From: Eledone cirrhosa
Lineage: Eukaryota
DNA length: 64,000 nt
Assembly (NCBI GenBank): GCA_964016885.1
Contig: OZ024741.1
Location: forward strand, 119,722,001-119,786,000
Direction: 5' to 3'
This document shows, one piece after another, positions 33,100 through 64,000 of this stretch. The notes under the pieces were generated by a model. The model was not told the DNA's origin. It saw only the letters and a program-made list of their open reading frames with translations, and did not search any database. The translations under genes were made by a program, and so were the position numbers. How positions within the stretch are numbered: the first letter of the stretch is position 1; every line of letters starts with the position of its first letter.

Positions 33100-33867
33100 A
33101 TATACTACTAAATCTCTGTGATGCTTGCTTGTTTGCTTGCTTGTCTGTAATGTAATACAGACAAAAGGGCGCATAATGGGAAAATACTTTTAAAGGGAGT
33201 TGATTCTGAAATGAGAATACAAATGGAATAAAACAAGTTTTGTATAAATCGGAGCACGGGTTCCCGAGATATGGGGTTTTCTGGGTACCTTCATAAATAG
33301 CCAAAACGGTGCATAATGGGAAAATACTCCGAAACTAACATAACCCTGAAATGGGAATACAAACGGAATAAAACAAGTTTGGCGTAAATCGGACATAGAC
33401 AATATTTTCATTATTCAAAAAATATTTTTAAGTGAATAGGATTTAAAAAATACATTTGAAAATTTTTTTTTCAGTGATTTCTTAGTGAATATGATTTCAA
33501 AAATACAAGTTGTTTGTACTTTAAGTATCTATATTTCAGCTTTCTTTAAATAGTCGATTAAACAGACGATATTTAAATTATTAAAAAACAAAAACATTCT
33601 TAAGTGAATATGACTGAAAAATACGAGTTGTTTTTACAGTAAATGTTTATATTTTTGCTTTTGTTAAACAGAATATTTTAATTATTTAGAAATATTTTAA
33701 AGTGAATGTGATTTCGAAAATACAAGTTGTTCGTACAGTAAGTGTTTAGCTTTCTTTACACAGACAATATTTTAATTATTAAAAAGTATTTTTAAATGAA
33801 TATGATTTGAAAAATACGAGTGGAAGAAAAACATAATAACATTATAAATAAAAAGAAATAGAAATAT

Positions 33868-35085: not shown

Positions 35086-35089
35086 AAAA

Positions 35090-35700
35090 ATAGAAATGTA
35101 ATAATACAATGCTTACAGAACGAAAATACAAACGAATATAATATAGAATATAAAGGAAGGGGTGGACAACCGAGTCACTACCAGAGCAAAAGATAGCAGT
35201 ATCGCGAGGAGCACTCTAATGATTTTTGAGGTAGGCCAGCACGCTCGCAGCCTTACCTCGGGTAATGGCGAGGCTGATGCGTTGGAACGACCAAGCGCCC
35301 TCGCGAGATTCACCAGTTACCTCTGTTAGACGAGCCGCCAGTGAAGATAGGAATCTGGCAATCAGCAGCCCGACTCCCCCGAACGTCTCGAATGCCACAG
35401 ACTGGAAAATGCAGTTGGCCGACAGATCACAGTACTTTAGGATTCTGCTCCGTTCGGCTGCGGAAGCTGTGGCTCTCGCCTTAACTGCAGCATCCAGGAT
35501 TTGGGAAGAAGCAAAAGAGTCACTAACTGTGACGTCCCAAACAAGGCACCTGCCTCTCGACCAGCTGCACAAGGTAAGGCCGTCTGGTCTTTTCCCATCA
35601 CTCCTGGACAACCCAGATGGTTTCAAGATTGAGGGGATGTTCGCCCGGACCAAAGCACTCTTGAGAATAAGGTTAAGCTCTGTGTGACGCGCGAAGCGAG
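35090..35700 (-). pseudogene. CRE-like RLE retrotransposon 3' fragment
   Basis: RHTELN...GLSRSDGKRPDGLTL..WSRGRCLVWDVTVSD...FETFG...QRISLAITRG. Confidence 0.8.
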
Positions 35701-35839
35701 AGTAAATATTTATATTTAGCTTTCTTTAAACAGACAATATTTTCATTATTTAGAAATATTTTAAAGTGATTATTTAAAAAAAAAATTTTTTTGAAGTAAT
35801 AGGAATTATTTCTAAGGTGAATACGATTTTCTATTCTTA

Positions 35840-41612: not shown

Positions 41613-43032
<1,420 letters not shown>

Positions 43033-43752
43033 TACCCATATTTCTTTACCATTCCTTTGGCTTCGTCTAATTCTTCCTGGGTTACCTGGATCGCTTCGCA
43101 CGTTTTTGCTACTCTGGCAAAACTCAGGGTACTTTTCTTAATTTCATTGTTGCTGTTGTTATTATCGTTATTTTTGCTATTGTTAATTTTAGTTTCAGTT
43201 GTGGTGGTGGTGGCGTCAGTGGTGTTCAGTGTGGAAGAGTTCATTTTGGTTGAATTCATTTCGATATCATGAGTTAATTTCTTTTTTTCTTTTGTTTCTG
43301 TTGTCGCTGTGGTGGTGGTGGGGGTGGTGGTTGTCGCGGTGGTGCTGTTGGTGGTGGTGGCGGCTTTAACACCTTCAGTCATTGGTAATGGCGGGAAATG
43401 AACGTCTGCCTGAGACAAATTAAAAATATTGCTACTGCTTACAACTCCAGTGTTGGCAAACGTAGCAATGTTTACGATGGTAGTGTCGGTGTGAGGTGTT
43501 GGATTGTGAGGAAGGAGTGAATCTGAGTCATCCATTATTTTTCAAAGAAAAAAAATTTTGTTTGATAATTATAAAAAGTTTAAATTTTGGGCTCAAGGCC
43601 CCAATATTTTTGAGTGTCCTTTTCAGAAATCAATGTATGTGCACTTATATATAGTTAACAATAACAATTTTCCATAAATAGCAATTTTAAATAACTGAAA
43701 ATAACAAACCTTTGCGGAGCTCACGATGATACGATTTACTACGTAGGTCGCC
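43033..43752 (-). mobile_element. 5' UTR and ORF1 N-terminus of a divergent Tx1-type subfamily
   Basis: SFARVAKTCEAIQVTQEELDEAKGMVKKYG aligns with SFAGIAKNLETILITNEELEEAKKMVTKNG of ORF1 at 60-62 kb; 5' end abuts (AAT)7. Confidence 0.75.
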
Positions 43753-43773
43753 AATAATAATAATAATAATAAT

Positions 43774-44537
43774 TCTGCAATGCTGTGGTTGAAACAGTGG
43801 ATCACTTAGTCTCTGGATGTAAAGTTTTAGCACCAGTAGAATACAAATCTAGACATGACAGAGTTGGCCAATAACTTCACGGGGTAATATGTCGGCATTA
43901 CAAAATCAAAGCTGAAGACAATTGACACAATCATCACCCTGAGGCTATAACTGAAGGAGAAAAAGTAATCATTCTCTGGGACTTTCCTCTACATACTGAC
44001 AGGACCATAAAAGCAAATAGACCTGACATCATTGTAAAAGATCAACATAATAAGGTCTGTTTATTGATAGATATGAGCATTCCATGTGATCACAATATCG
44101 CGGCAAAAGAATTTGACAAGCTACGAAAATATAAAGATCTGCTTATTGAAATTGAGAAAATGTGGCACCTTAAGGCCGTTACAATACCAGTGATTGTGGG
44201 AGGACTGGGAATGATCAAGAAAGGAACAGAACAATATTTGCGAATGATTCCTGATTTACCCTCTCTGCAAGAGGTGCAAAAAATTGTTTTGACTGGTACT
44301 GCACACGTATTGAGAATAGCACTATCTCTGTGTATTTACATATGCATATGCACATGTGTATATATGTATACTGTTTTTTTTCTTCTTTTTTTAAAATTAT
44401 AATCAATGTGCTGTATTAACTGGCTTACCAATGCACACTGTGAATTTATTTGCCCTAGGTGTCAGGAAGACACTCGGCATATATCTCAGAAACAATAATG
44501 AAAGAAAATAAAAAAAAATGATAATAAAAAAAAAAAA
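43774..44537 (+). mobile_element. 5'-truncated R4/Dong-type element (RLE domain and 3' UTR)
   Basis: ETVDHLVSGC, RHD, RPDIIVKD, LIDMSIP, KYKDL; AAT tracts on both sides. Confidence 0.85.
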
Positions 44538-44552
44538 AATAATAATAATAAT

Positions 44553-46509
44553 AAGGAAATCTACCATCACCTCCACACAAACAACTTGTTACCGGACGAA
44601 CAGAAAGGATGCCGAAAGAAGTCCCGTGGTACAAAGGACCAGTTACTTATTGATAAGATGGTAATGAGGAATTGCAAGAGGAGACACACTGGTCTTGCCA
44701 TGGGATGGATAGACTACAAAAAGGCATTTGACATGGTGCCTCATTCTTGGATCACCAAAGGCCTAGAGATCTTCAAGGTGGCAGATAACATCAGAAAGTT
44801 GTTGGGCAAAAGTATGAAGTCCTGGAAAACAGAGTTAACATCAGCTGGAGAATCCTTGGGAGGCGTGAAGATCAAGAGAGGTATCTTCTAGGGAGATAGT
44901 CTGTCCCCTCTGTTGTTTGTCCTTGCCCTGATGCCCCTGACCATTATACTGCGAAAAGTGAGAGCAGGATACAAGTTGGGAAAGCCAAAGCTTACCATCA
45001 ATCACCTCCTCTTCATGGACGATCTTAAGCTCTTCGGGAAGAGTGAGAAGGAGTTGGATGTGCTTGTTGACACTGTCCGTATTTTCAGCAATGATATATG
45101 TATGCAATTTGGTATTAGTAAGTGTGGAGTCCTTGTTATGAAGAGGAGTAAATTGAGCAGAAGCAACGGAATCCAGGTAACAACAGGTGAGATGATAAAG
45201 GAAATTGACACTGAAGAAGGATACAAGTATTTGGGTGTTCTGGAGGCTGATGACATCAAGAACAAAAAAATGTAGGAATTAATAAGATCTGAATACATTC
45301 GGAGAATAAGGAGCGTATTAAAGTCACATCTGAACAGTAGGAATGCCATAAGTGCAGTAAATTCCCGAGCTGTGTCTATTATTAGGTACAGTGCAGGAAT
45401 TCTGAGATGGAATGTTGCTGAACAAAAAGAAATGGATAGGAAGACTAGGAAGCTATTGACTATCTACAACATGTTCTACAAGAGTAGTGATGTCGATAGA
45501 CTCTACTTAAGGAGATCTGAAGGTGGAAGAGGTCTTATCAGCATAGAGGACTGTGTTCAGATGGAGAAAAACAACCTACACAAATACGTGACTGATAGTA
45601 AGGAGCCAATGCTCAGAATTGTACTGAAGGAGAGGACAATAGACCAGGGGGATGTCCAAGGAGGAAATAACAACAAGGAGAAAGAGAAGCCTTCATGAAA
45701 AATCCCTTCATAGTACCTTCTTTGAGAAAACTGAATCCAGAGATCCACAGACATGGAACTGGTTGAAAAGAGGAGACCTTAAAAACGCTACAGAAGGAAT
45801 GTTAATGGCTGCGCAAGAGCAGGCCCTCAAAAAGAAGTGGCTGAAACACCATATTTACAAGGAGGAGGCTAGCCCACTGTGCAGGATCTGTGGCTCACAT
45901 TGTATCCGAGTGTAAACACCTAGCCCAGACTCACTGTAAAAGCTGGAGACATGATGTGATGGGCAGGGTGATCCACTGGCACCTATGCAAAGTAAACAAT
46001 TTGACACATTCTGAGAACTGGTATGAGCATAAGCCAGAGTCGGTGATAGAAAACGATCAGGTGAAGGTGCTGTGGGATTTTAGGATACAGACGGACAAGA
46101 AACTGGAACACAATAGACCTGACCTGGTGGTTTTGAACAAGGAAAAAAGATCGTGCCTGATTGTGGATGTGGCCTGCCCATTCGACACGAGAGTGCAAGA
46201 GAAGGAGAGGGAGAAAATTAACCGATACCAGGACTTAAAGTGGGAGGTAAAAAGGATTTGGAACTGCCATGAAGTCAAAGTGGTCCCGATTGTCATAGGC
46301 GCACTAGGTACTATCTCAAAAATTTTCCAGGGATGGTTAAAGAAAATTGGCCCCGCCACGCTTTTTGGAACGCTTCAAAAGGCATGCTTGCTGGGAACAG
46401 CAAGAACCCTCCGATACGTCCTGAATATCTGAGGCTGCAGGCAGTGGCTTGATATTCATTTCAACAAACTTTCCAGTTAACTAACATCAATGACTGAGAC
46501 TCAAAGAAC
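44553..46509 (+). mobile_element. 5'-truncated R4/Dong-type element (RT + RLE, with stops)
   Basis: [36 protein letters not shown]; ends in (AAT)19. Confidence 0.9.
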
Positions 46510-46569
<60 letters not shown>

Positions 46570-46769
46570 GCCCCGGCACCACCACCGACATAGCCAGCAG
46601 CAATAACAGCCAACTACAACAAAAAGTATATTATATTATTGTAATGCACTGGGTGATTGCTGGCCTGGAGTGGAGACAATTATTAATAATTTCATTCTTA
46701 AGCCACGCAATGCTCACATTAAGGAACCACTCATGATAATAACAATTTAAAAAAAACAACAAAAAGAAA

Positions 46770-49700
46770 ACCCCGTGACCAAGAAATACCGGGATGGCGG
46801 CCGGCGGGGAATAGCCATGTCTCTAGGGGAGAACGACCCCTCTAGTCTTGGTTGACACTCGTTCTAGAAGTGGTAACACGAAAAGATTACCCCTTGGCGG
46901 ATAAGGATAAAACGCGACAAAATAAAGTAGATGTCTAATGATGAAATCTCATACCGGATCGGCCGTCACCCGGGTAAAAAAGGGCCGCGTCCCTCAGAGA
47001 GGAACCAGACTGGGGTCGAAAAATCAGCTAATGGTTCAAACCTTCCCATCACTTCGGAGCTGGAGACCTCCCATAACCGGAATACTCCTACTGTTGGCCC
47101 TCCATGCTCACCACCAAGAAATCCAAAGAAAAAGAGAGAAAAATGGTCAAGGGAAGATAATAAAGAAGTCCTTGAGGCTTTCTACACTGCCATGTACTAC
47201 CCATCAAATACATCGAATACAGAGCAAACATATATCAACTGGAAAAAGAAACATCCCGAAAACAGAGGCTATATTGACAGTAACAAACTAGCCAATATAC
47301 GAAGAAATATTGTAAGAAAAAAGTTACTAACTGATATAGAAATTGATCAGATCAAGCTAGTAGCACAAAGTCAGCGAAGGGAAAATGAAGCATGTGTCAG
47401 TGAAAACGAGGTAAACTGTAACACTTCGAATCCCAGAGTTGGGGCGGAATCACTGGCAACAGAACAAATTAAAGAAAGGAGCGAAAAAGTGGAGGGAGTG
47501 CATGCTCAGGATGAAACTCCAAATGAAAATAATGAGATCGTAAATGATAAAGAAATGAATGAGAATGAACTTGCCAACTTGAAGGATGAAATTATGATCG
47601 AATGGATGAAAATGAAAGAATCTGACATGGGGGAACGAGACACCCTCCCTAAGATCCAGAACTCCAAACAGAACCAAAAGATAATACACAAGACAAACAT
47701 AATTCTCAAAAACATTATCATCACAAACAAACTAAGCATTACTGACTTAAATCATCTCTATTATGCATCGGCTAAAGTCACCACTCACTTATGTGGAGTG
47801 AAGATGAAAAAACAAAGGAATTCCCACAAGAAATCTACTTGGCAAGATAACATCAATCGCCAAATAAACCTTCTCCGATCTGACATAGAAATTTTAACAA
47901 ACTATAAAGTAGGTGAACATGTTAAACAAACTAAACTTAGAAAATTGAAAAAAAAGTACAGTATAAGATCAACATGTGACATAGACATGCTGATAGAAAC
48001 AATCAAGCAAAAAGTGTCGGCCAAAGCTGCTCGTATAAGGCGCTTTGAAAAACGATCTAGATTCTATAAGGACAATAATATGTTCAAAAACAACCAAAGA
48101 AACTTCTACAGAAAAATTGGTAAGTCAACAATAACTGCTAAATCAATACCACCCAAGGAGGAAGTGCAAGAATTCTGGGAAAAGATCTGGGCCGAAGAAA
48201 AAGTTCATAACATACATGCCCCATGGATAGACAGACAAATGAAAGAAACAGCTCACCTTGAAGAACAAACATGGGAAAATATAACAGTTGAACAGCTGCG
48301 CTTGGCTCTAAGAAAAACCAGCAAATGGAAATCCCCAGGAAAAGACAAAATACAAAACTTTTGGATAAATGCCTTCACAGAGTCTCATGAGCTGTTAGCC
48401 CAACTTTACAATGAAATAGTTAAGGAGCCAGAAAAGATACCATCATGGCTAGTTAACGGCATTACATTCCTGCTACCGAAGAATGATGAGACAAACAATC
48501 CCAAAAATTACAGACCGATAACCTGCTTGACCACAATGTATAAAATTTTAACATCAGTCCTAACTGAATACACATATGACCACCTGATAACAAATGACCT
48601 ATTTCCCATTGAGCAGAAAGGGTGTAAACGAGGCTCATATGGCTGTAAGGATCAGCTTCTGGTTAACAAAATGATACTGGAAGATTGTCATAATAGACAC
48701 AAAAATCTATCGATTGCTTGGATAGATTATAAAAAAGCATTTGATAGTTTGCCACACAGTTGGATTGAAAAATGTTTAGAGATTTTCAAAATATCCCCCG
48801 TTATCAGGAGGTTTTTGTCATTCAGTATGAGGACATGGAGAACGACACTCCTTTTGAATAGTGAAACAAAATCACTGGAAGCTGGAGAAGTTAACATTAA
48901 TTGTGGAATTTTTCAGGGTGACTCTTTATCACCGCTTTTATTCTGCATCGCACTTATACCATTAAGTAAAATGCTCAATGAAACAAAACATGGATATAGA
49001 GTCTATGACAAAACCATTAATCACCTGTTCTACATGGATGACCTGAAACTATTTGCAAAAAATGATGAACAATTGCAAGGGCTATTATCCACTGTGAAGC
49101 AGTTCAGTGATGACATTAAAATGGAGTTTGGACTGGATAAATGCGCCAAAGCAACGTTCACCAGAGGAAAGCTGCTGAAGAGTTCAGACATTAATCTTGA
49201 TCGGGGGAACGTGATAAGAGAGCTTGATCAAGAACAAACTTACAAATATCTAGGTGTTTGTGAAGGAGACGGAATCAAGCACTCGACAATGAGGGAAAGG
49301 ATAAGGAAGGAATGTTACCGCAGAGTCAGAGCAATCTTAAGAACGGAATTGAATGCAAGGAATAGGATCGATGCCATAAACACGCTTGCCATACCAGTAG
49401 TAACCTACAGTTACAATGTCATCAACTGGTCAAGCACAGAGATCCGTAGGCTCGATACAAAAATCCGAAAATTCTTAACCATGCACAGAATGCATCACCC
49501 TAAGGCAGACATAGATAGAATATATCTCCCTAGGAAAGAAGGAGGACGTGGGTTAATCCAGTTAGACATTGCGTTGAAAACTGCAACAATTGGATTATCC
49601 ACATATCTAAGGGAATCACATGATTGGATGATCAAACTCGTTTTGAAATACGAAAGCACCAAAAGATCATATTCCATTACAAAAGATGCACAAAGATACA

Positions 49701-50721
49701 GTAATGGACTACAAATTTCAGAAGTCCCATTTACTGCTGAAATGGAAAACACAGAAAAAGCAAAGCAGGTAAAAGTAACTGCAAAGAAAGAACTGCTACA
49801 GAAACTGGCTAAGAAATGGCAAGAAAAGCCTCTGTATGGAAAATACCCAGAGCGAGCTAACAATCCTGATGTTGACAAAACTTTAACCCATCAGTGGTTG
49901 GCATCCTCTGGACTGAAATCGGAGACTGAAGGACTGATTATATCCGCACAAGATCAGTGTCTGCCAACAAAAAATTACCAAGCCAACATAATAAAAAATG
50001 GGTGCAGCCCATTATGCCGTGTATGCAAAAAACAACCAGAGACCATTGACCATATAATTTCAATGTGCAGTCCTATAGCTCCAACCGAATACCTAAACAG
50101 GCATGACAGAGCTGCACAATACATACATTGGATAATGTGCAAGCATTTTGACCTGCCCCATCAAAAGAATTGGTGGGAGCATCAACCACCTCCCATACTT
50201 GAAAAAGATCACATCTCAATCTTGTGGAACTTTAGCATCCAAACAGACCGAAAAATAGATGCAAATAGACCTGATATAATATTGAAGGACTTTCAAAGGA
50301 GGGTATGCCTGCTAATTGATATGTCTGTTCCAATAGACAAGAATGTATCTATAAAAACATTTGAAAAATTGAGCAAGTATAAGGACCTGGAGATAGAAAT
50401 TGGAAAAATGTGGAAATTGAGAACTAAAACAATACCAGTGGTTGTAGGCGCTCTGGGAATGATACCTAAGGGGTCTAACGACTACTTATCGCAAATCCCA
50501 GGAAACCCGCGTATAGGAGAAATACAAAAGATAGTACTAATGGGAACTGCCCATATACTAAGGAAGATCCTGTCAATATAAGTACATCACAAGTCTAAAC
50601 ACTAAGGATGCATGTGTGAATATGTGTGTTCTTTCTTGAACATGGCGGACCTTGTTGTCTCTTGAGGTCACTGGTTGTGACTTGGTGATAACTCGTATAA
50701 ACATAAAGCAAGATAAATGCA
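46770..50721 (+). mobile_element. Apparently full-length R4/Dong-type RLE retrotransposon
   Basis: GC-rich 5' UTR, single intact ORF, 3' UTR ending in (AAT)9. Confidence 0.9.
46931..50581 (+). CDS. 1216-aa RT + CCHC finger + restriction-like endonuclease (R4/Dong clade)
   Basis: GIFQGDSLSPLLF, FYMDDLKLF, CRVCKKQPETIDHIISMC, RHD, RPDIILKD...IDMSVP...KYKDL. Confidence 0.93.
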   Translation: MSNDEISYRIGRHPGKKGPRPSERNQTGVEKSANGSNLPITSELETSHNRNTPTVGPPCSPPRNPKKKREKWSREDNKEVLEAFYTAMYYPSNTSNTEQTYINWKKKHPENRGYIDSNKLANIRRNIVRKKLLTDIEIDQIKLVAQSQRRENEACVSENEVNCNTSNPRVGAESLATEQIKERSEKVEGVHAQDETPNENNEIVNDKEMNENELANLKDEIMIEWMKMKESDMGERDTLPKIQNSKQNQKIIHKTNIILKNIIITNKLSITDLNHLYYASAKVTTHLCGVKMKKQRNSHKKSTWQDNINRQINLLRSDIEILTNYKVGEHVKQTKLRKLKKKYSIRSTCDIDMLIETIKQKVSAKAARIRRFEKRSRFYKDNNMFKNNQRNFYRKIGKSTITAKSIPPKEEVQEFWEKIWAEEKVHNIHAPWIDRQMKETAHLEEQTWENITVEQLRLALRKTSKWKSPGKDKIQNFWINAFTESHELLAQLYNEIVKEPEKIPSWLVNGITFLLPKNDETNNPKNYRPITCLTTMYKILTSVLTEYTYDHLITNDLFPIEQKGCKRGSYGCKDQLLVNKMILEDCHNRHKNLSIAWIDYKKAFDSLPHSWIEKCLEIFKISPVIRRFLSFSMRTWRTTLLLNSETKSLEAGEVNINCGIFQGDSLSPLLFCIALIPLSKMLNETKHGYRVYDKTINHLFYMDDLKLFAKNDEQLQGLLSTVKQFSDDIKMEFGLDKCAKATFTRGKLLKSSDINLDRGNVIRELDQEQTYKYLGVCEGDGIKHSTMRERIRKECYRRVRAILRTELNARNRIDAINTLAIPVVTYSYNVINWSSTEIRRLDTKIRKFLTMHRMHHPKADIDRIYLPRKEGGRGLIQLDIALKTATIGLSTYLRESHDWMIKLVLKYESTKRSYSITKDAQRYSNGLQISEVPFTAEMENTEKAKQVKVTAKKELLQKLAKKWQEKPLYGKYPERANNPDVDKTLTHQWLASSGLKSETEGLIISAQDQCLPTKNYQANIIKNGCSPLCRVCKKQPETIDHIISMCSPIAPTEYLNRHDRAAQYIHWIMCKHFDLPHQKNWWEHQPPPILEKDHISILWNFSIQTDRKIDANRPDIILKDFQRRVCLLIDMSVPIDKNVSIKTFEKLSKYKDLEIEIGKMWKLRTKTIPVVVGALGMIPKGSNDYLSQIPGNPRIGEIQKIVLMGTAHILRKILSI

Positions 50722-50999
50722 AATAATAATAATAATAATAATAATAATGATTTCTTTATTAACCACAAGGGTTTACATAAAGTAGACATTAAGGACAGTG
50801 CAGGACAATGCAGGACGGTACAAATGGGCATTTCTGCGTGTAAAAAACAAAAACAGAGGATGTAACAAAAAATAACAATGAAAAATTCCCCAATAGGGGG
50901 CAGACTTCGGAGGGACATTTGTGGAGAAAGCCCAATAAAAAGCCACAATGACCCTGACCACCAAGGCAAGTGCCCTCTCCCAGTTTTCCACCTTTAATT

Positions 51000-53900
51000 T
51001 ACAGATATATACTCAGAGTAGGCCCATTCACTCGGGCCATTCTTGCTTCTCTCACCCACATTCTCAAATGAAATTTGAAAAAGTCAATCAGAGCATCACC
51101 GAAGAGGTAAGTGCTCGTCTTCAGCCCTTTCAAACGTGTCCACCATACTATCGGTAGCACTGCCAGGCCAGAGATTTCTGGAAGTTGTCCATAGGCCCTG
51201 GCCCGAAGGTTCTTCCGAAGAGATTGGCTAGTTGATTTTCGTCGACGCCTAGAGTTTCCCCAAGTACGTCGTCGCTCTTCCCCTCCACTAATCCTCTATA
51301 GAACGCCGAGGTGGAGTTTCCACCGATCACATTGCCCGATTGGTCGAGGGCTGTGAGCGCCTGAAGACATTCCAGTCTCCAGGCGCTCCCTCTCGGTCTT
51401 CGCTTGACCCAGGACTGCAGCTCCGTCAAGGAAACGAGCTGGGGAAAAACGCGTCTAGCAAACGGCGACCACACCTGATCACCGTCGAGGAAGAGGTGGA
51501 GATGTCGTAGCCTGAGCGCGTGCCTGCGCATCATCAGCCACGGCATGCCCAGCCCTCCACGTAGCGGGTGTTGACAACAGATGGACCGCCTGACCATCGG
51601 AGCACGTCCCTTCCACAAAAAGCGAAAGAGCAAACGCTCCAGCGCAGTCAGGCGAGATTAGGACAAGGTACGACGGTTAGGCGGTAGCAGATGACAGACG
51701 CGATGTACGCGTTAGCCACCTCCGCTCGACCTTTCAGGGATAGCTTCCTCTCCACCCATTTCTGGGTGAGAGAAGCCACCCTGCTCGTCACCTCGTCCCA
51801 GTTTTTGTCCGTCTGGAGGTCCGGACCGAACCAGACCCCTAGCAATTTAACCGGTCCGTCCGTCCAGCGCCCGACGACGCTGTTGGACGGCATGGACCTG
51901 CCTCTCCAGGTGCCGAGCTGCAGGCCCACTGACTTTTCCTGGTTGATCATTGCTCCTGTCACCGCTTCGTATTCTCTTAGTGTAGTGCCGATCGCCTCGA
52001 TGTGTTTGGCGTTCGACACCACTACGGTGACATCGTCCGCATATGCTGACACGGATCTTCCGCATCCTAGTTCGCGCGGGACTCCCCTCAACGTCTCCAG
52101 TTTGTGCAGTAATGGCTCGAGAGTCAATACGTACAAGAGGGACGAGAGGGGACATCCTTGGCGGACCGAGCGCATGATGTTGAACGGTTCCGACAGGTGA
52201 CCGTTCACTCTCACCACAGAGCAGATGTCGCTGTGCATGGCAGCGATCCAGCCTCTGAAGACGGGCCCAAAGCCAGCCGCCCTCAGGACTGCCGCTAGGT
52301 AACGATGGTCGACCCTATCGAAAGCTTTCGACTGATCTAAATTGATCAAGGACCCACCCGTGCCAGGTTCCTTAGCTACCCTCTCTATGATGTATCGCAT
52401 GAGGTGGAGGTTGTCGTGGATGGATCTGTCGGGAATGGCGCATGTCTGCGCCTCTCCCACCAGACCACCAACGACAAGCGCCAACCTCTTTGCTAGCACC
52501 TTGGCCAAAATCTTGAACTCTGTGTTTAGCAGAGTTATGGGCCGGAAATTGTCTATGTTATCCCCCTTGTTCGGATCCTTTCTCAGCAGTGCCACCGCTC
52601 CTCGGCTCACAGAACTGGGAATTCTCCCGTTCTGTTGCCAGTTGCAGTAGACGTCCGCCAAGAGGCCTCCGAACAAGTCTGGCATCTGTACGTAAAGTTC
52701 ATAGGGCAGACCATCCAAACCAGGCGATTTACCCCTTGTGCAACTAGTCATTGCATCCCGTACTTCAGCGGCTGTTATCGGCTTTTCGCAACACTTCGCC
52801 TCAGTGGCCGAGAGCCGCGGCAGTCCGTCGAGGTAGACACTAAAGTCCATCCCTCTACCCGGCCCACCGCTGCCCCCGAACAGCTGAGCGAAGTGTCGCT
52901 GAAAAGCTTCACACATTTGCTCGGGATCGAGTAGTATGCGCCCGTCGTGGTCCACCAAAGACCGGATCGTGGCTTTGCTGCCACGACGCGCCTCCGCCAC
53001 TCGGGCCCATTGAACGGCTTTCGTCCCCTCGTGTCTGAGAGCACGCACCCTAGCTCTGACAACGCAGCCTTCGTGCTTTGCATTGAAGAATTGGTCAAGG
53101 GCCAATTTCGCCGCAAGCACGTCGGTCGCAATGCCTTTGCTAAGCGCCTCGTCTAATTTTCTAACTAGTTCTCCCTCTGCTCTATTTTTCTCTATTGCTA
53201 AAGCCTTACTAAACCTAATCGATTCTATTCTAATCGCTCTTTTCAGAGCAAACCACCACTTGTTGTTGACGATGGCCCCCGTCAACGCCCGCTTAACTAG
53301 TTCGCTAATCCGGTCTCTGTAGGCCTTGCGCGCTGGTAAGGACGCGTTTAGCTTCCAGTAGCCGGGTCCTCGTCTATGAAGCCTATCTAAGTCAAGCACA
53401 CAGATCACGAATTTGTGGTCCGTGTAGCTGACTATCTTGAATTGTGGACAGCCTATGCTAGACCTATCTATTTCCCTACAAAATACTCTATCTAGATATG
53501 ATCTGGATGACCCTATGCGGTTTGTCCAAGTCCACATTGGCACATTCGGGAAATCCAATCGGTACCTGTCAGACAGTTCAAAACGCCTGAGCAGGTTGGT
53601 GAGGCTCTTGCACCCTCCACCCCTATCCGCTAATCCCACACAGTCCCAGCGTGCATCTAAGATCCCGTTCCAGTCGCCCACTAACACTAAAGAGCGGGAC
53701 GTTCCAAGAAAGGTCTCCAGACGCCGGAAGAAATCAGGCCGCCCTGCTCCTGTCGGGGCATAGACGGCCACTAACCTGAAAGCTTGCCCGTCTCCGCTGG
53801 TCACGTCCAGCACCACCAGCTTACCCTCTGGGTCCAGGAAGATGGCCCGTATGGCGAGATCCAAACCTCTCCGAAAAAGCACAGCAACTCCTCCACCCGA

Positions 53901-54095
53901 TCCAGGACGGCTGGGAGATGCGTACACATCGTAGCCGCCGAAGATCGGTGCGAAGGCCCGTGCTTCGGAGATTCTGGTCTCGCTGATGGCCACTACATCT
54001 ATGTTTAGTGACCTGAGGTCGTTGAGCAGGTGACCCTGCTTCCATGACGACCCCAAGCCACGCGCATTTATGCTGCCTATTCTGAGTGAGGTCAT
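51000..54095 (-). pseudogene. ORF2 (APE + RT), frameshifted, zinc-finger region deleted
   Basis: 815-aa ORF nearly identical to the N-terminal part of the 1139-aa ORF. Confidence 0.9.
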
Positions 54096-54130
54096 GTTTA
54101 AAATAGAGTGGAAAAGATGGGACAGACCAC

Positions 54131-56246
54131 TTACCGTACTTTTGGTAGAGGAGGGATGGTTTTTACATCCCTTTTCTGATCGTCTGGTGAAGGGACCGTT
54201 GAATCGTCCCTTCGGCTGGTCGTCGGCTCTTCTAAGAGAATGTCTGAATATACTCTTCGATTGATGGTTCCTCCTAGGTCCCTGAAATCACCAACTGCGT
54301 TGGGGAATTTCGTTTTAATGTTTGTGTATTGTTTCTGTGCTATTTTTAGCAGTCTTATGTTAGTTGGCGTTTTGATTGGTGCTGGTATTATGTAGTCCTG
54401 TTGTGAAATGTCTGTGTGTTCAATTATGTAAGTCATTAGTTTCTTGTTGTGTGTGTTTATTGCCGTGCATTTGTTTTTCTGGGGGTGGGGTGTGGTTCTG
54501 CTATTTTCTTGTCGTTGTTGCTGGGTGTGTGTGTTTTGTTGTTGTGTTTGCGATGTTGGTGCTTGTGGTGGTGGTGTTGAAGGTGTTGTTGGCGGTGGGG
54601 TTGTCGCCGGTGGTGATGGTGGTGCTGGTGTGGGTGGTGATGGTGTTGGTGGTGTTGCTGCTGTGGGTCTCTTTGCAGTAGACTTTACCCTTTTCTCATT
54701 TCTTTCCTCCCTTTTCAAAGGCGACGATGCGCTGCTTCTGCGTTTGTGCCTTCTTACAACCTTTTGCCACCCCTCTCCCACCTCACACTCCATGTCTGAT
54801 TCTGTGAGATCGGGGAGGGGTACCACTCTTTCACTTGTTGTTGTTGGTGATGTTTGCACTGGAGTCTCTGTTGCAGCTGCATTTGGTATTGCTGTTGTTG
54901 TTGTTAATATTTCCACTGCTGCTGCTGTTTTTGATTTCCGTGGCGTGGGTATGGGTGCCACGGACCTATCGTTCCTGGTTGCCGCTTGTCCTGTTGCTGC
55001 TAGCCGTGGAGCCGGTTTCGTAAGGAGGGGGGTTTTCTCCTTTCTCAGGGTCTTCTCGTTGCAGAAGGCCCTGAGGTGAGTCTTCGATCCACAGCGAAAG
55101 CATTTCGGGCGTTTTCCCTCAACACTTATGGGCAGTTGAGTGCCGTTATCGAAGTCTATCACATCCGGGATAGCTTCGATGCACTCCTGGTTGGTTTGGA
55201 TTAGCATCTCAATGGAGGTGCCGACCCAATCTTCTCTTACTTTTTTCTGTACTTGCAGTACAGTTGTTTTGTCCTCGATTCCGACGAGGACAGACGCGGC
55301 CAGCCAAGAAGGTGCCATCCCGGGGGACGGGGGGGGGGGGGGGACGGGGACGGGACGTGGGTCAGTTTGACCCTCACAATTTTTTACCCGCAGTAGGAGG
55401 GCACCAACACCATTTCCTCGCTCCTTAGGGTCACTAAGGATTGAGCCTTTGCCTCCTGGGGTGTGGCAAAAAGTACGTCTACGGTGGCATATTTTTTGCC
55501 TCGGGTGATGTGCGTTTTCCGCTGCCACACAGACCCTAAGGCTTTTTGTATTTGAGCCTCTGTGGCTCTTTCAACCCTACGGGATTTTGTACTTACTGTA
55601 CGGTACGTGACCGTACAGTGCTGTTGGGTTTCGAAAAATTTTTCCGCTGCCTTGCAGATTGGTCGGTGTCCAGTCTTTGTCACCATCTTCTTCGTTTCCT
55701 CTAATTCCTCATTTGTTATGAGGATTGTTTCCAGGTTTTTCGCAATACCTGCAAATCAGATTGGTTTTTCTTTGCTGCTGTTGTTGTTGTCGTCAGAGCT
55801 GCTGTTACTTTTGTTGTTGCTGCAGGTACTACGACTACTGCCTCCGCCGCTGTTGCTGTGGTTGTTGTTGGTGTTGCTGCTGCTAATGCTGTTGTTGTTT
55901 ATGCTGCTGGTGATGCTGTTGCGGCTGCTACTGTTGTTTTCATTGTCACTGTTGCTGTTGTTATTACGGCTGCTACTGCTACTATTCCTGACGTCAGACG
56001 AATGAAATGGGTTTTCGTATTTCCCGCACACCTGTTTCGTCGTTGTCGTCGTCGTCGTGGAGAAATCTTGCACGCTTTGCACGAGACTTTTCTTTTTTGT
56101 CGTCGCTTGCGAAAGAGAAGGGAGGGAGAGAGACACATTTAAAGAAGGGAGGGAGAGAGACAATCTTCTCTCTGCTGTAGTGATGATTGAGGAAGAAGAA
56201 GACGGAATGAGTGGGAGTTACCAATGAAAATTGTTTTTCGTAGCCA
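54131..56246 (-). pseudogene. ORF1, disrupted
   Basis: Split across ORFs 54131-55528, 55384-55686 and 55756-56163. Confidence 0.85.
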
Positions 56247-56463
56247 TGTTGTTTTTTTTGTTTAGAATAAATATTGGGCACAAAACCCCAATAAGTAGTT
56301 ATTTAACCCCGAAGGGCCAAATAACGGGCAGAAAGACCCCTCTCACGAGGAGGAGGGTGTTTTTGTCTACAAGTTCGTTAAAGTTTTAAACAATTTACAA
56401 TTGTTATAGCGTTCAAAATTTACAATACCTTACAGAGCCGAGCCTCCGTCAACCATAGCATTC

Positions 56464-56507
<44 letters not shown>

Positions 56508-56767
56508 TTTCTTTATTAACCACAAGGGTTTACATAAAGTAGACATTAAGGACAGTGCAGGACAATGCAGGACGGTACAAATGGGCATTTCTGCGTGTAA
56601 AAAAACAAAAACAGAGGATGTAACAAAAATAACAATGAAAATAACAATGAAAAATTCCCCAATAGGGGGGAGACTTCGGAGGGACATTTGTGGAGAAAGC
56701 CCAGTAAAAAGCCACAATGACCCTGACCACCAAGGCAAGTGCCCTCTCCCAGTTTTCCACCTTTAGT

Positions 56768-59700
56768 TTACAGATATATACTCAGAGTCGGCCCATTCAC
56801 TCGGGCCATTCTTGCTTCTCTCACCCATCTTTCAACAAAATGCTGGGAAGAGAGCACTTCCTTCTCTACTCTGATTTTCCTTTTCAAATGAAATTTGAAA
56901 AAGTCAATCAGAGCATCACCGAAGAGGTAAGTGCTCGTCTTCAGCCCTTTCAAACGTGTCCACCATACTATCTCTTTCGCCATGGCCACCAGACAGATAA
57001 AAACTGCCTGCCCTTCCCGGCTAAAGGAGGAGGGCGGGGCAATCCTCACGATAGACTCAGATGATAGCTGGATCCGTCCTAAACGCGACAGCAGGTGTTC
57101 GACATAAACCCACAAGTCAGCAATTTTCGGACACTGGACGAGTGCGTGCAGGACGGTTTCGTCGCCCTGCGCGCATCTCGGACATGCCCGGCTGACGGCA
57201 CCTCCATGCCTGTAGAGTCTATCCCGAACTGGCAAGGCTCCTCGGTAGCACTGCCAGGCCAGAGATTTCTGGAAGTTGTCCATAGGCCCTGGCCCGAAAG
57301 TTCTTCCGAAGAGATTGGCTAGTTGATTTTCGTCGACGCCTAGAGTTTCCCCAAGTACGTCGTCGCTCTTCCCCTCCACTAATCCTCTATAGAACGCCGA
57401 GGTGGAGTTTCCACCGATCACATTGCCCGATTGGTCGAGGGCTGTGAGCGCCTGAAGACATTCCAGTCTCCAGGCGCTCCCTCTCGGTCTTCGCTTGACC
57501 CAGGACTGCAGCTCCGTCAAGGAAACGAGCTGGGGAAAAACGCGTCTAGCAAACGGCGACCACACCTGATCACCGTCGAGGAAGAGGTGGAGATGTCGTA
57601 GCCTGAGCGCGTGCCTGCGCATCATCAGCCACGGCATGCCCAGCCCTCCACGTAGCGGGTGTTGACAACAGATGGACCGCCTGACCATCGGAGCACGTCC
57701 CTTCCACAAAAAGCGAAAGAGCAAACGCTCCAGCGCAGTCAGGCGAGGCTTAGGACAAGGTACGACGGTTAGGCGGTAGCAGATGACAGACGCGATGTAC
57801 GCGTTAGCCACCTCCGCTCGACCTTTCAGGGATAGCTTCCTCTCCGCCCATTTCTGGGTGAGAGAAGCCACCCTGCTCGTCACCTCGTCCCAGTTTTTGT
57901 CCGTCTGGAGGTCCGGACCGAACCAGACCCCTAGCAATTTAACCGGTCCGTCCGTCCAGCGCCCGACGACGCTGTTGGACGGCATGGACCTGCCTCTCCA
58001 GGTGCCGAGCTGCAGGCCCACTGACTTTTCCTGGTTGATCATTGCTCCTGTCACCGCTTCGTATTCTCTTAGTGTAGTGCCGATCGCCTCGATGTGTTTG
58101 GCGTTCGACACCACTACGGTGACATCGTCCGCATATGCTGACACGGATCTTCCGCATCCTAGTTCGCGCGGGACTCCCCTCAACGTCTCCAGTTTGTGCA
58201 GTAATGGCTCGAGAGTCAATACGTACAAGAGGGACGAGAGGGGACATCCTTGGCGGACCGAGCGCATGATGTTGAACGGTTCCGACAGGTGACCGTTCAC
58301 TCTCACCACAGAGCAGATGTCGCTGTGCATGGCAGCGATCCAGCCTCTGAAGACGGGCCCAAAGCCAGCCGCCCTCAGGACTGCCGCTAGGTAACGATGG
58401 TCGACCCTATCGAAAGCTTTCGACTGATCTAAATTGATCAAGGACCCACCCGTGCCAGGTTCCCTAGCTACCCTCTCTACGATGTATCGCATGAGGTGGA
58501 GGTTGTCGTGGATGGATCTGTCGGGAATGGCGCATGTCTGCGCCTCTCCCACCAGACCACCAACGACAAGCGCCAACCTCTTTGCTAGCACCTTGGCCAA
58601 AATCTTAAACTCTGTGTTTAGCAGAGTTATGGGCCGGAAATTGTCTATGTTATCCCCCTTGTTCGGATCCTTTCTCAGCAGTGCCACCGCTCCTCGGCTC
58701 ACAGAACTGGGAATTCTCCCGTTCTGTTGCCAGTTGCAGTAGACGTCCGCCAAGAGGCCTCCGAACAAGTCTGGCATCTGTACGTAAAGTTCATAGGGCA
58801 GACCATCCAAACCAGGCGATTTACCCCTTGTGCAGCCAGTCATTGCCTCCCGTACTTCAGCGGCTGTTATCGGCTTTTCGCAACACTTCGCCTCAGTGGC
58901 CGAGAGCCGCGGCAGTCCGTCGAGGTAGACACTAAAGTCCATCCCTCTACCCGGCCCCCCGCTGCCCCCGAACAGCTGAGCGAAGTGTCGCTGAAAAGCT
59001 TCACACATTTGCCCGGGATCGAGTAGCATGCGCCCGTCGTGGTCCACCAAAGACCGGATCGTGGCTTTGTTGCCACGACGCGCCTCCGCCACTCGGGCCC
59101 ATTGAACGGCTTTCGTCCCCTCGTGTCTGAGAGCACGCACCCTAGCTCTGACAACGCAGCCTTCGTGCTTTGCATTGAAGAATTGGTCAAGGGCCAATTT
59201 CGCCGCAAGCACGTCGGTCGCAATGCCTTTGCTAAGCGCCTCGTCTAATTTTCTAACTAGTTCTCCCTCTGCTCTATTTTTCTCTATTGCTAAAGCCTTA
59301 CTAAACCTAATCGATTCTATTCTAATCGCTCTTTTCAGAGCAAACCACCACTTGTTGTTGACGATGGCCCCCGTCAACGCCCGCTTAACTAGTTCGCTAA
59401 TCCGGTCTCTGTAGGCCTTGCGCGCTGGTAAGGACGCGTTTAGCTTCCAGTAGCCGGGTCCTCGTCTATGAAGCCTATCTAAGTCAAGCACACAGATCAC
59501 GAATTTGTGGTCCGTGTAGCTGACTATCTTGAATTGTGGACAGCCTATGCTAGACCTATCTATTTCCCTACAAAATACTCTATCTAGATATGATCTGGAT
59601 GACCCTATGCGGTTTGTCCAAGTCCACATTGGCACATTCGGGAAATCCAATCGGTACCTGTCAGACAGTTCAAAACGCCTGAGCAGGTTGGTGAGGCTCT

Positions 59701-60187
59701 TGCACCCTCCACCCCTATCCGCTAATCCCACACAGTCCCAGCGTGCATCTAAGATCCCGTTCCAGTCGCCCACTAACACTAAAGAGCGCGACGTTCCAAG
59801 AAAGGTCTCCAGACGCCGGAAGAAATCAGGCCGCCCTGCTCCTGTCGGGGCATAGACGGCCACTAGCCTGAAAGCTTGCCCGTCTCCGCTGGTCACGTCC
59901 AGCACCACCAGCTTACCCTCTGGGTCCAGGAAGATGGCCCGTATGGCGAGATCCAAACCTCTCCGAAAAAGCACAGCAACTCCTCCACCGGATCCAGGAC
60001 GGCTGGGAGATGCGTACACATCGTAGCCGCCGAAGATCGGTGCGAAGGCCCGTGCTTCGGAGATTCTGGTCTCGCTGATGGCCACTACATCTATGTTTAG
60101 TGACCTGAGGTCGTTGAGCAGGTGACCCTGCTTCCATGACGACCCCAAGCCACGCGCATTTATGCTGCCTATTCTGAGTGAGGTCAT
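56768..60187 (-). CDS. ORF2: APE endonuclease + RT + CCHC finger (1139 aa, L1/Tx1 group)
   Basis: SINARGL, ISET, VYAP, GDWN, SYLDR, YTDH, PGYWKLN, KSPGLDG, RQGCPLS, AYADD, CPRC...ETVLHALVQC. Confidence 0.95.
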   Translation of the reverse strand: MTSLRIGSINARGLGSSWKQGHLLNDLRSLNIDVVAISETRISEARAFAPIFGGYDVYASPSRPGSGGGVAVLFRRGLDLAIRAIFLDPEGKLVVLDVTSGDGQAFRLVAVYAPTGAGRPDFFRRLETFLGTSRSLVLVGDWNGILDARWDCVGLADRGGGCKSLTNLLRRFELSDRYRLDFPNVPMWTWTNRIGSSRSYLDRVFCREIDRSSIGCPQFKIVSYTDHKFVICVLDLDRLHRRGPGYWKLNASLPARKAYRDRISELVKRALTGAIVNNKWWFALKRAIRIESIRFSKALAIEKNRAEGELVRKLDEALSKGIATDVLAAKLALDQFFNAKHEGCVVRARVRALRHEGTKAVQWARVAEARRGNKATIRSLVDHDGRMLLDPGQMCEAFQRHFAQLFGGSGGPGRGMDFSVYLDGLPRLSATEAKCCEKPITAAEVREAMTGCTRGKSPGLDGLPYELYVQMPDLFGGLLADVYCNWQQNGRIPSSVSRGAVALLRKDPNKGDNIDNFRPITLLNTEFKILAKVLAKRLALVVGGLVGEAQTCAIPDRSIHDNLHLMRYIVERVAREPGTGGSLINLDQSKAFDRVDHRYLAAVLRAAGFGPVFRGWIAAMHSDICSVVRVNGHLSEPFNIMRSVRQGCPLSSLLYVLTLEPLLHKLETLRGVPRELGCGRSVSAYADDVTVVVSNAKHIEAIGTTLREYEAVTGAMINQEKSVGLQLGTWRGRSMPSNSVVGRWTDGPVKLLGVWFGPDLQTDKNWDEVTSRVASLTQKWAERKLSLKGRAEVANAYIASVICYRLTVVPCPKPRLTALERLLFRFLWKGRAPMVRRSICCQHPLRGGLGMPWLMMRRHALRLRHLHLFLDGDQVWSPFARRVFPQLVSLTELQSWVKRRPRGSAWRLECLQALTALDQSGNVIGGNSTSAFYRGLVEGKSDDVLGETLGVDENQLANLFGRTFGPGPMDNFQKSLAWQCYRGALPVRDRLYRHGGAVSRACPRCAQGDETVLHALVQCPKIADLWVYVEHLLSRLGRIQLSSESIVRIAPPSSFSREGQAVFICLVAMAKEIVWWTRLKGLKTSTYLFGDALIDFFKFHLKRKIRVEKEVLSSQHFVERWVREARMARVNGPTLSIYL

Positions 60188-60222
60188 GTTTAAAATAGAG
60201 TGGAAAAGATGGGAAAGACCAC

Positions 60223-62316
60223 TTACCGTATTTTTGGTAGAGGAGGGATGGTTTTTACATCCCTTTTCACTTGATCGTCTGGTGAAGGGACCGTTGAATC
60301 GTCCCTTCGGCTGGTCGTCGGCTCTTCTAAGAGAATGTCTGAATATACTCTTCGATTAATGGTTCCTCCTAGGTCCCTGAAATCACCAACTGCGTTGGGG
60401 AATTTCGTTTTAATGTTTGTGTATTGTTTCTGTGCTATTTTTAGCAGTCTTATGTTAGTTGGCGTTTTGATTGGTGCTGGTATTATGTAGTCCTGTTGTG
60501 AAATGTCTGTGTGTTCAATTATGTAAGTCATTAGTTTCTTGTTGTGTGTGTTTATTGCCGTGCATTTGTTTTTCTGGGGGTGGGGTGTGGTTCTGCTATT
60601 TTCTTGTCGTTGTTGCTGGGTGTGTGTGTTTTGTTGTTGTGTTTGCGATGTTGGTGCTTGTGGTGTTGAAGGTGTTGTTGGCGGTGGGGTTGTCGCCGGT
60701 GGTGATGGTGGTGCTGGTGTGGGTGGTGATGGTGTTGGTGGTGTTGCTGCTGTGGGTCTCTTTGCAGTAGACTTTACCCTTTTCTCATTTCTTTCCTCCC
60801 TTTTCAAAGGCGACGATGCGCTGCTTCTGCGTTTGTGCCTTCTTGAGACCTTTTGCCATCCCTCTCCCACCTCACACTCCATGTCTGATTCTGTAAGGTC
60901 GGGGAGGGGTACCAGCTCCACTCTTTCACTTGTTGTTGTTGGTGATGTTTGCACTGGAGTCTCTGTTGCAGCTGCATTTGGTATTGCTGTTGTTGTTGTT
61001 AATATTTCCACTGCTGCTGCTGTCTTTGATTTCCGTGGAGTGGGTATGGGTGCCACGGACCTATCGTTCCTGGTTGCCGCTTGTCCTGTTGCTGGTAGCC
61101 GTGGAACCGGATTCGGGAGGAGGGGGGTTTTCTCCTTTCTCAGGGTCTTCTCGTTGCAGAAGGCCCTGAGGTGAGTCTTCGATCCACAGCGAAAGCATTT
61201 CGGGCGTTTGCCCTCAACACTTATGGGCAGTTGAGTGCCGTTATCGAAGTCTATCACATCCGGGATAGCTTCGATGCACTCCTGGTTGGTTTGGATTAGC
61301 ATCTCAATGGAGGAGCCGACCCAATCTTCTCTTACTTTTTTCTGTACTTGCAGTACAGTTGTTTTGTCCTCGATTCCGACGAGGACAGACGCGGCCAGCC
61401 AAGAAGGGGTCATTCCGGGGGGGACGTGGGTCAGTTTGACCCTCACAATTTTTTGCCCGCAGTAGGAGGGCACCAACACCATTTCCTCGCTCCTTAGGGT
61501 CACTACTGATTGGGCCTTTGCCTCCTGGGGTGTGGCAAAAAGTACGTCTACGGTGGCGTATTTTTTGCCTCGGGTGATGTGCGTTTTCCTCTGCCACACA
61601 GACCCCAAGGCTTTTTGTATTTGGGCCTCTGTGGCTCTTTCCACCCTACGGGATTTTGTACTTACTGTACGGTACGTGACCGTACAGTGCTCTTGGGTTT
61701 CGAAAAAATTTTTCGCTGCCTTGCAGATTGCTCGGTGTCCGTTCTTTGTCACCATCTTCTTCGCTTCCTCTAATTCCTCATTTGTTATGAGGATTGTTTC
61801 CAGGTTTTTCGCAATACCTGCAAATGAGATTGGTTTTTCTCTGCTGTTGTTGTTGTCGTCAGAGCTGCTGGTACTTTTGTTGTTGCTGCAGGTACTACGA
61901 CTACTGCCTCCGCCGCTGTTGCTGTGGTTGTTGTTGGTGTTGCTGCTGCTAATGCTGTTGTTGTTTATGCTGCTGGTGATGCTGTTGCGGCTGCTACTGT
62001 TGTTTTCATTGTCACTGTTGCTGTTGTTATTACGGCTGCTACTGCTATTATTCCTGACGTCAGACGAATGAACTGGGTTTTCGTATTTCCCGCACACCTG
62101 TTTCGTCGCTGTCGTCGTCGTCGTGGAGAAACCTTGCACGCTTTGCACGAGACTTTTCTTTTCTTTCGTCGCTTGCGAAAGAGAAGGTAGGGAGAGAGAC
62201 ACATTTAAAGAAGGGAGGGAGAGAGACAATCTTCTCTCTCCTGTAGTGATGATTGAGGAAGAAGAAGACGGAATGAGTGGGAGTGACGTATGAAATTTTT
62301 TTTTTTTGGTAGCCAT
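60223..62316 (-). CDS. ORF1: nucleic-acid-binding protein with zinc knuckle (~697 aa from the first ATG)
   Basis: CFRCGSKTHLRAFC; S/N-rich and P/T-rich low-complexity segments; lies upstream of ORF2. Confidence 0.85.
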   Translation of the reverse strand: MATKKKKFHTSLPLIPSSSSSIITTGERRLSLSLPSLNVSLSLPSLSQATKEKKSLVQSVQGFSTTTTTATKQVCGKYENPVHSSDVRNNSSSSRNNNSNSDNENNSSSRNSITSSINNNSISSSNTNNNHSNSGGGSSRSTCSNNKSTSSSDDNNNSREKPISFAGIAKNLETILITNEELEEAKKMVTKNGHRAICKAAKNFFETQEHCTVTYRTVSTKSRRVERATEAQIQKALGSVWQRKTHITRGKKYATVDVLFATPQEAKAQSVVTLRSEEMVLVPSYCGQKIVRVKLTHVPPGMTPSWLAASVLVGIEDKTTVLQVQKKVREDWVGSSIEMLIQTNQECIEAIPDVIDFDNGTQLPISVEGKRPKCFRCGSKTHLRAFCNEKTLRKEKTPLLPNPVPRLPATGQAATRNDRSVAPIPTPRKSKTAAAVEILTTTTAIPNAAATETPVQTSPTTTSERVELVPLPDLTESDMECEVGEGWQKVSRRHKRRSSASSPLKREERNEKRVKSTAKRPTAATPPTPSPPTPAPPSPPATTPPPTTPSTPQAPTSQTQQQNTHTQQQRQENSRTTPHPQKNKCTAINTHNKKLMTYIIEHTDISQQDYIIPAPIKTPTNIRLLKIAQKQYTNIKTKFPNAVGDFRDLGGTINRRVYSDILLEEPTTSRRDDSTVPSPDDQVKRDVKTIPPLPKIR

Positions 62317-62553
62317 GTTTTTTTGTTTAAAATGAAATTTTGGGTACAAAACCCCAATAACTGGCTATTTAACCCCGAAGGGCCAAATAACGGACAGAAA
62401 GACCCCTCTCACGAGGAGGAGGGTGTCTTTATCAACAATTTGGTTCAAGTTTTAAACAATTTACAATTGTTTTAACGGTTAAAAATTACTATACCTTACA
62501 GAGCCGAGCCTCCGTCAACCATGGCATTCAATAATAATAATAATAATAATAAT

Positions 62554-64000
62554 GATTTCTTTATTAACCACAAGGGTTTACATAAAGTAGACATTAAGGA
62601 CAGTGCAGGACAATGCAGGGCGGTACAAATGGGCATTTCTGCGTGTAAAAAAACAAAAACAGAGGATGTAACAAAAATAACAATGAAAATAACAATGAAA
62701 AATTCCCCAATAGGGGGGAGACTTCGGAGGGACATTTGTGGAGAAAGCCCAGTAAAAAGCCACAATGACCCTGACCACCAAGGCAAGTGCCCTCTCCCAG
62801 TTTTCCACCTTTAGTTTACAGATATATACTCAGAGTCGGCCCATTCACTCGGGCCATTCTTGCTTCTCTCACCCATCTTTCAACAAAATGCTGGGAAGAG
62901 AGCACTTCCTTCTCTACTCTGATTTTCCTTTTCAAATGAAATTTGAAAAAGTCAATCAGAGCATCACCGAAGAGGTAAGTGCTCGTCTTCAGCCCTTTCA
63001 AACGTGTCCACCATACTATCTCTTTCGCCATGGCCACCAGACAGATAAAAACTGCCTGCCCTTCCCGGCTAAAGGAGGAGGGCGGGGCAATCCTCACGAT
63101 AGACTCAGATGATAGCTGGATCCGTCCTAAACGCGACAGCAGGTGTTCGACATAAACCCACAAGTCAGCAATTTTCGGACACTGGACGAGTGCGTGCAGG
63201 ACGGTTTCGTCGCCCTGCGCGCATCTCGGACATGCCCGGCTGACGGCACCTCCATGCCTGTAGAGTTTATCCCGAACTGGCAAGGCTCCTCGGTAGCACT
63301 GCCAGGCCAGAGATTTCTGGAAGTTGTCCATAGGCCCTGGCCCGAAAGTTCTTCCGAAGAGATTGGCTAGTTGATTTTCGTCGACGCCTAGAGTTTCCCC
63401 AAGTACGTCGTCGCTCTTCCCCTCCACTAATCCTCTATAGAACGCCGAGGTGGAGTTTCCACCGATCACATTGCCCGATTGGTCGAGGGCTGTGAGCGCC
63501 TGAAGACATTCCAGTCTCCAGGCGCTCCCTCTCGGTCTTCGCTTGACCCAGGACTGCAGCTCCGTCAAGGAAACGAGCTGGGGAAAAACGCGTCTAGCAA
63601 ACGGCGACCACACCTGATCACCGTCGAGGAAGAGGTGGAGATGTCGTAGCCTGAGCGCGTGCCTGCGCATCATCAGCCACGGCATGCCCAGCCCTCCACG
63701 TAGCGGGTGTTGACAACAGATGGACCGCCTGACCATCGGAGCACGTCCCTTCCACAAAAAGCGAAAGAGCAAACGCTCCAGCGCAGTCAGGCGAGGCTTA
63801 GGACAAGGTACGACGGTTAGGCGGTAGCAGATGACAGACGCGATGTACGCGTTAGCCACCTCCGCTCGACCTTTCAGGGATAGCTTCCTCTCCGCCCATT
63901 TCTGGGTGAGAGAAGCCACCCTGCTCGTCACCTCGTCCCAGTTTTTGTCCGTCTGGAGGTCCGGACCGAACCAGACCCCTAGCAATTTAACCGGTCCGTC
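62554..64000 (-). mobile_element. Tx1-type LINE copy 3 (3' portion; continues beyond window)
   Basis: Nearly identical to 56506-57952; ORF2 frame open to 62816. Confidence 0.95.

Follow-up and report, generated by a model that had tools for sequence, protein, structure and literature searches.

Seven LINEs of two unrelated clades are stacked end to end in the window (the whole 64-kb stretch of Eledone cirrhosa DNA analysed here), probably because AAT repeats served again and again as insertion sites, nicked on opposite strands at the same TpA step. The array comprises three different R4/Dong-like families carrying a restriction-like endonuclease (RLE) and four L1/Tx1-like APE elements of two families. 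The initial annotation had described at least seven abutting elements, AAT runs at six positions, three RLE elements on the plus strand and four Tx1-type elements on the minus strand; all six runs and their junctions were located where it placed them, and the strands were borne out for all seven elements. The elements themselves needed refinement, as the three RLE copies represent three families, two of them 5'-truncated and carrying stops, and the first Tx1-type element is a 720-bp 5' fragment.

The array opens with TxF (43033..43752, minus strand), which preserves the 5' UTR and the beginning of ORF1 from a second L1/Tx1-like family and was recognised by ORF1 similarity and 5' UTR motifs. 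An (AAT)7 run (43753..43773; this and all following AAT runs are given on the plus strand) forms a head-to-head junction between the 5' end of TxF and the truncated 5' end of R1 (43774..44493, plus strand), an R4/Dong-like element reduced to the RLE domain and interrupted by two stops. A degenerate A/AAT tract (44494..44552), with (AAT)5 at its end from 44538, leads to R2 (44553..46509, plus strand), which belongs to another R4/Dong-like family, is 5'-truncated and is disrupted by stops and frameshifts. Beyond (AAT)19 (46510..46566) lies R3 (46567..50721, plus strand), an apparently full-length R4/Dong-like element with an intact 1216-aa ORF (46931-50581). R3 meets T1 (50749..56463, minus strand), an L1/Tx1-like copy that is full-length and carries indels of its own, tail to tail at (AAT)9 (50722..50748). 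T1 is separated by (AAT)14 (56464..56505) from T2 (56506..62529, minus strand), an intact 6,024-bp L1/Tx1-like element with ORF1 at 62316-60223 and ORF2 at 60187-56768 (1139 aa). The last run, (AAT)8 (62530..62553), precedes T3 (62554..64000, minus strand), the 3' part of a third copy that continues past the end of the window.

Each of the six junctions separating the seven LINEs is an (AAT)5-19 run, and AAT is present at both flanks of T1, T2, R1, R2 and R3. When the 64-kb window was scanned, all six (AAT)≥5 runs fell within the array and none in 1-43000; (ATT)≥5 runs were absent throughout the window. Orientation is uniform within each clade, all three RLE elements being on the plus strand and all five APE elements (the four of the array and a solo copy, S) on the minus strand. 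Since no element breaks into the coding sequence of another, antisense self-nesting was ruled out.

Assignment of R1-R3 to the R4/Dong group is based on R3, whose single ORF encodes a helical N-terminal domain, RT, a C-terminal CCHC motif (position 1029) and the PD..D/ExK motifs of a restriction-like endonuclease (RHD at 1057, RPD at 1113 and K1146xxKY), and no APE, and on the sense-strand (TAA)n found on both flanks of all three copies. RVT_1 was the only Pfam match of R3, its best PDB matches were R2 proteins (covering residues 449-1162), and no named Dong/R4 reference protein appeared among the matches to the RLE elements. In their overlaps, the three RLE copies share 40-54% amino acid identity; compared with R3 the range is 34-54%, R1 being 54% identical to R3 residues 1032-1216 and R2 34-48% identical to R3. 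Such low identity indicates that the three families arrived separately. The N-terminal domain of R3 gave a confident four-helix model (pLDDT 88). Foldseek returned no match to it at E≤0.001; chains of Myb/SANT type, the R2 N-terminal region among them, were recovered only with weak Z scores (4.2-5.1) amid unrelated matches. The available part of PMC7998251 describes a divergent Myb/SANT domain without zinc fingers at the N-terminus of the R4/Dong clade. An HDV-like ribozyme has been demonstrated at the 5' end of Bombyx Dong (PMC3774820). A descriptor for this ribozyme, run without a positive control, found none in R3 or in two related loci from other assemblies (L076 and L088, below), and an Rfam scan gave no match near the gathering score.

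T2 ORF2 encodes an APE-RT-CCHC protein with Pfam matches to Exo_endo_phos, RVT_1 and zf-RVT; its closest solved structure is human L1 ORF2p (E 2.7e-52, versus 1.2e-21 for R2). T2 ORF1 contains a CX2CX4HX4C motif and matches zf-CCHC clusters at 0.92. In the Tx1 clade, ORF1 is separate and bears a CCHC zinc knuckle. T2 thus combines an ORF2 bearing APE, RT and a C-terminal CCHC with affinity to the L1 group and a separate CCHC-knuckle ORF1, and TxF, T1-T3 and S may be called Tx1-like by resemblance to the L1/Tx1 group. Named Tx1 sequences were absent from the matches to the APE elements, and a search for ORF1 homologues found none. TxF is linked to T2 through ORF1 (24 of 49 residues identical, E 1e-9) and through shared 5' UTR motifs. 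The remainder of TxF is lost and its broken end abuts a Penelope-like fragment (42313-43029, minus strand), in which 61 bp are directly repeated (at 42313 and 42951) and which has no Pfam match but a motif that we take to be of the GIY-YIG type.

T1 and T2 are 98.1% identical (5572/5680), T1 carrying 271-bp and 51-bp deletions and frameshifts; the deletions lack GT-AG ends and were ruled out as introns. Differences number 47 in the 500 nt at the 5' end (55964-56463 compared with 62030-62529) and 1 to 7 per 500 (<1.5%) in ORF2. This piling up of divergence at the 5' end suggests 5' swapping or conversion among subfamilies. A contig of run X5, from another organism, agrees with T2 at four of T1's indels, so T1 is the older copy. 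T2 and T3 differ at 2 positions in 1447 bp, and T3 may be a fresh insertion, the product of one tandem duplication or an assembly repeat; the two are possibly not independent.

Within the window, the evidence favours AAT being a target, and not just a tail, for both clades. Two 5' ends meet at the (AAT)7 run at 43753, which is the 3' tail of neither TxF nor R1; TxF therefore had an AAT 5' flank, whichever of the two elements came first. At the 3' junctions, read on the plus strand, the sequence is AAT|GATTTC in 4/4 APE copies and element|AAT in 3/3 RLE copies, and in both clades the junction is at a TpA step. The rule is kept by three APE subfamilies (T1-T3, TxF and S) and by the three RLE families. 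In non-array DNA, TAATAAT precedes 14 of 9,218 TpA steps.

The same pattern is seen outside the array in S (33874..35087, minus strand), a solo, 5'-truncated L1/Tx1-like relative, absent from the initial annotation, that matches T2 at 909 of 1163 aligned nucleotides and has an identical 3' terminus. S is flanked by an 18-bp TSD with one mismatch (left copy, 33856..33873; right copy, 35088..35105; both on the plus strand), ending in TAATAAT. When up to 2 mismatches are allowed, this 18-mer is confined to these two sites of the window; among 200,000 draws from a random-pair null, some of which filters skipped, 29 were hits. The flank of S amounts to about 2.7 AAT units, all within the TSD, which implies that the AAT was there beforehand and that no tail was added. 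As S has its own TSD, the possibility that TxF and S are two halves of one interrupted element was ruled out. Altogether, the claim of the initial annotation that an APE and an RLE enzyme share an AAT target from opposite strands is partly supported: within this one window a shared target is borne out (head-to-head run, AAT on both sides, TSD of S), and the nicking of each strand is a prediction. For the APE elements, all target evidence is drawn from the five copies of this single window.

An alternative view is that only Dong is specific for AAT, the preference of the Tx1-like APE being a relaxed one of the L1 type, for TpA where DNA is A-rich, with Dong tails used opportunistically. We consider this unlikely. 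Affinity to human L1 ORF2p speaks for it, the human L1 target consensus being TTTT/AA (PMC1950540, in the portion available), as does the T2 stretch aligned to the L1 βB6-βB5 loop, which has the L1 length (9 residues between anchors, compared with 11 in Tx1L). S moreover lies in a degenerate A-rich tract, and for its insertion a looser A-rich preference is possible. However, all five APE copies sit at ATAAT in a single orientation, a context that represents 0.15-0.4% of TpA steps; the primer strand ends in AAT and has no T-tract; and the plentiful (TA)n runs are unused, 41 (TA)≥7 runs (1,250 bp) hosting not one of the five copies. Two observations weigh against AAT as a general target of such elements. 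An L1-like fragment that is more distantly related (14895-16298, minus strand; 36-50% amino acid identity, many stops, 3' end unrecognisable) abuts (TA)22 and has no AAT flank. Elsewhere, 71 distant L1/Tx1 loci, whose best segments are 21-48% identical in amino acids and most of which lack element ends, included none (0/71) with an (ATT)≥4 or (AAT)≥4 run.

Alternatively, AAT/ATT could be a tail borne by each RNA, and the array could result from head-to-tail self-stacking and tandem duplication of T1-T3. The near-identity of T2 and T3, the head-to-tail arrangement of T1-T3 and the long degenerate tail of R1 are in keeping with such a scheme, which may still account for the T2/T3 pair. As an explanation of the whole array it is quite improbable, since it leaves unaccounted for the head-to-head run at 43753 and the AAT in both copies of the S TSD; the uneven divergence of T1 and T2 and the T1-specific indels are likewise unlike one recent duplication. 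That the array is partly an assembly artefact, with repeat copies joined through AAT runs, is very improbable: no contig piece among those listed spans the stretch and near-identical copies do meet at simple repeats, but the junctions are exact and in phase, the runs vary in length, the elements are not randomly oriented, and S, which has a unique TSD, is independent of the array.

Insertion of both clades into a shared AAT target can be pictured as follows. During target-primed reverse transcription, cDNA synthesis starts from the strand that was nicked, so that the choice of strand fixes the orientation of the element. Both enzymes are predicted to nick at one and the same TpA step, the Dong-like RLE on the ATT strand and the Tx1-like APE on the AAT strand; each clade would then be primed from the strand that its own enzyme had cut. 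The nick positions are putative, and pairing of the RNA end with the primer would leave their register ambiguous. A staggered second nick would duplicate about 18 bp of AAT (within a run, an 18-bp stagger would copy six units), leaving usable target on both sides and allowing the stack to grow. The earlier suggestion that each insertion regenerates its target follows from this 18-bp duplication. The elements are decayed to different degrees (TxF, R1 and R2 broken, T1 partly so, R3 and T2 intact), which points to arrivals at different times. Extension of this scheme to the whole genome is tentative and, on balance, doubtful: an APE lineage would have come by convergence to use Dong's (AAT)n, nicking the shared TpA step on the other strand, the two clades would build each other's landing sites, and much Dong and Tx1 DNA would be found in self-renewing arrays that are mixed and polarised and whose 3' ends converge.

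Flanks of RLE relatives were inspected at 16 loci from other assemblies. Nine of these retain the 3' end; L082-L087 and L073, which either lack the 3' end or are distant, were excluded from the counts. Sense AAT at the 3' end is clear in L076, L077, L081 and L088, weak in L074 and L075, and absent in L080; in L078 and L079 the sequence beyond the 3' end is presumably large-subunit rDNA. AAT runs are present on the 5' side too in L076, L088 and, weakly, L074, and absent from the truncated 5' side of L077 and L081. L074, L076, L077 and L081 represent one family in a single assembly. L076 (508-9512), an animal-like contig of a bacterial MAG, carries Dong-like copies in tandem with AAT runs between them. 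L088 (2017-6337), a contig from a viral collection, carries a Dong-like element flanked by (ATA)17 and (AAT)98; the latter run is followed by a 300-bp piece beginning with CTTTATT, which may represent a 3' end lying antisense at this target, and then by (AAT)14.

Sequencing runs that contain the stretch or part of it numbered 20 of the 24 listed, 8 of them at half the words or more; no RNA run containing it was among those listed. Read or contig mapping of four runs skipped the AAT repeats, and in two raw-read runs only 163 and 117 reads mapped, chiefly on GTG repeats. In run X1, summed contig depth, which is no measure of copy number, climbs toward the 3' end of R2 and R3 (plus strand) and of T1 (minus strand), rising from 81,294 to 460,773 in R3 and from 90,695 to 761,353 in T1. 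This rise fits dispersed, 5'-truncated families. A metagenome scan yielded distant relatives only. Among viral contigs, a scan for the 3'-terminus motif gave one match, with flanks unlike the element, and single-protein and APE-alignment scans detected no relatives.

The Dong half of this arrangement is known. Insertion into (TAA)n is reported for Dong in most insects, molluscs and cnidarians, and Bombyx Dong, DongAg, DongBg and ostracod Dong1/2 have, like R1-R3, a single ORF with RT and RLE (PMC7998251 and PMC3812793, as far as the accessible text goes). Nothing essential sets the present elements apart from Dong/R4, except that here three families are stacked and the repeat is shared with an APE element. 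Microsatellite targets are on record for Tx1 families as well, namely (TC)n for Kibi, (TTC)n for Koshi and (TTCC)n/(TTTC)n for crocodilian Tx1; these, too, are L1/Tx1-group APE-RT elements with a single simple repeat at their flanks (PMC4494074, sections available). Here the target is AAT/ATT rather than TC-type, and is common to an RLE clade. Kojima's rule for a target-specific family asks for the target in >20% of genomic flanks (same source, in part); for the APE family the count is 5/5 copies, all in the window. AAT is likely to be a new target for the Tx1-like group, as judged from the five copies of this one window, which represent three subfamilies.

SART1 and TRAS1 are APE elements of the R1 clade. 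In Bombyx mori they insert in opposite directions into one telomeric repeat, of which 2-3 units suffice, and TRAS1 nicks between T and A (PMC7265360, available portion). Whereas both of those are APE elements at the telomere, the present case pairs APE with RLE on an interstitial microsatellite. Such a pairing is found in Keno (APE, Tx1) and Utopia (RLE, NeSL), which have one U2 snRNA gene site in common; their 3' flanks are identical and hence their orientation is the same, in contrast to the opposite orientations seen here, and the accessible text describes no mixed Keno/Utopia arrays (PMC4640811). The combination unites these two published patterns, SART/TRAS and Keno/Utopia providing precedents for each half. 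A literature search that included the available parts of PMC8967140 and PMC9115989 found neither an AAT-targeting Tx1-like family nor a mixed Dong/Tx1 array; Repbase and Kojima and Fujiwara 2004, which were outside the search, may hold one. If the proposed reading is correct, AAT would join the known targets of the Tx1 group, and the array would offer a natural pair of unrelated endonuclease folds reading one 3-bp repeat from opposite strands. Such a pair would make a simple system in which to study how strand and site are chosen during retrotransposition. The local clustering of two LINE groups that are both abundant would likewise be accounted for. In the genome of Octopus vulgaris, 92.7 Mb belong to Dong-R4 and 56.3 Mb to L1-Tx1, with 5 recently active families (1129 insertions) and 13 (421 insertions), respectively (PMC13282606 and its supplement, in the parts available). 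The closest match to a named sequence was a stretch of 61 residues, 64% identical, within an Octopus sinensis protein.

Several other features surround S. A 3' fragment of a third retrotransposon clade with RLE motifs, presumably CRE-like, lies at 35100-35690 (minus strand); S is located exactly at its 3' end, possibly in its degenerate ATT/T-rich tail. Decayed Helitron-like Rep/Pif1 helicase ORFs (35853-40144, plus strand), with a match to Pif1_2B, are accompanied by repeats of about 110 bp at 33479-33821 and 35701-35773.
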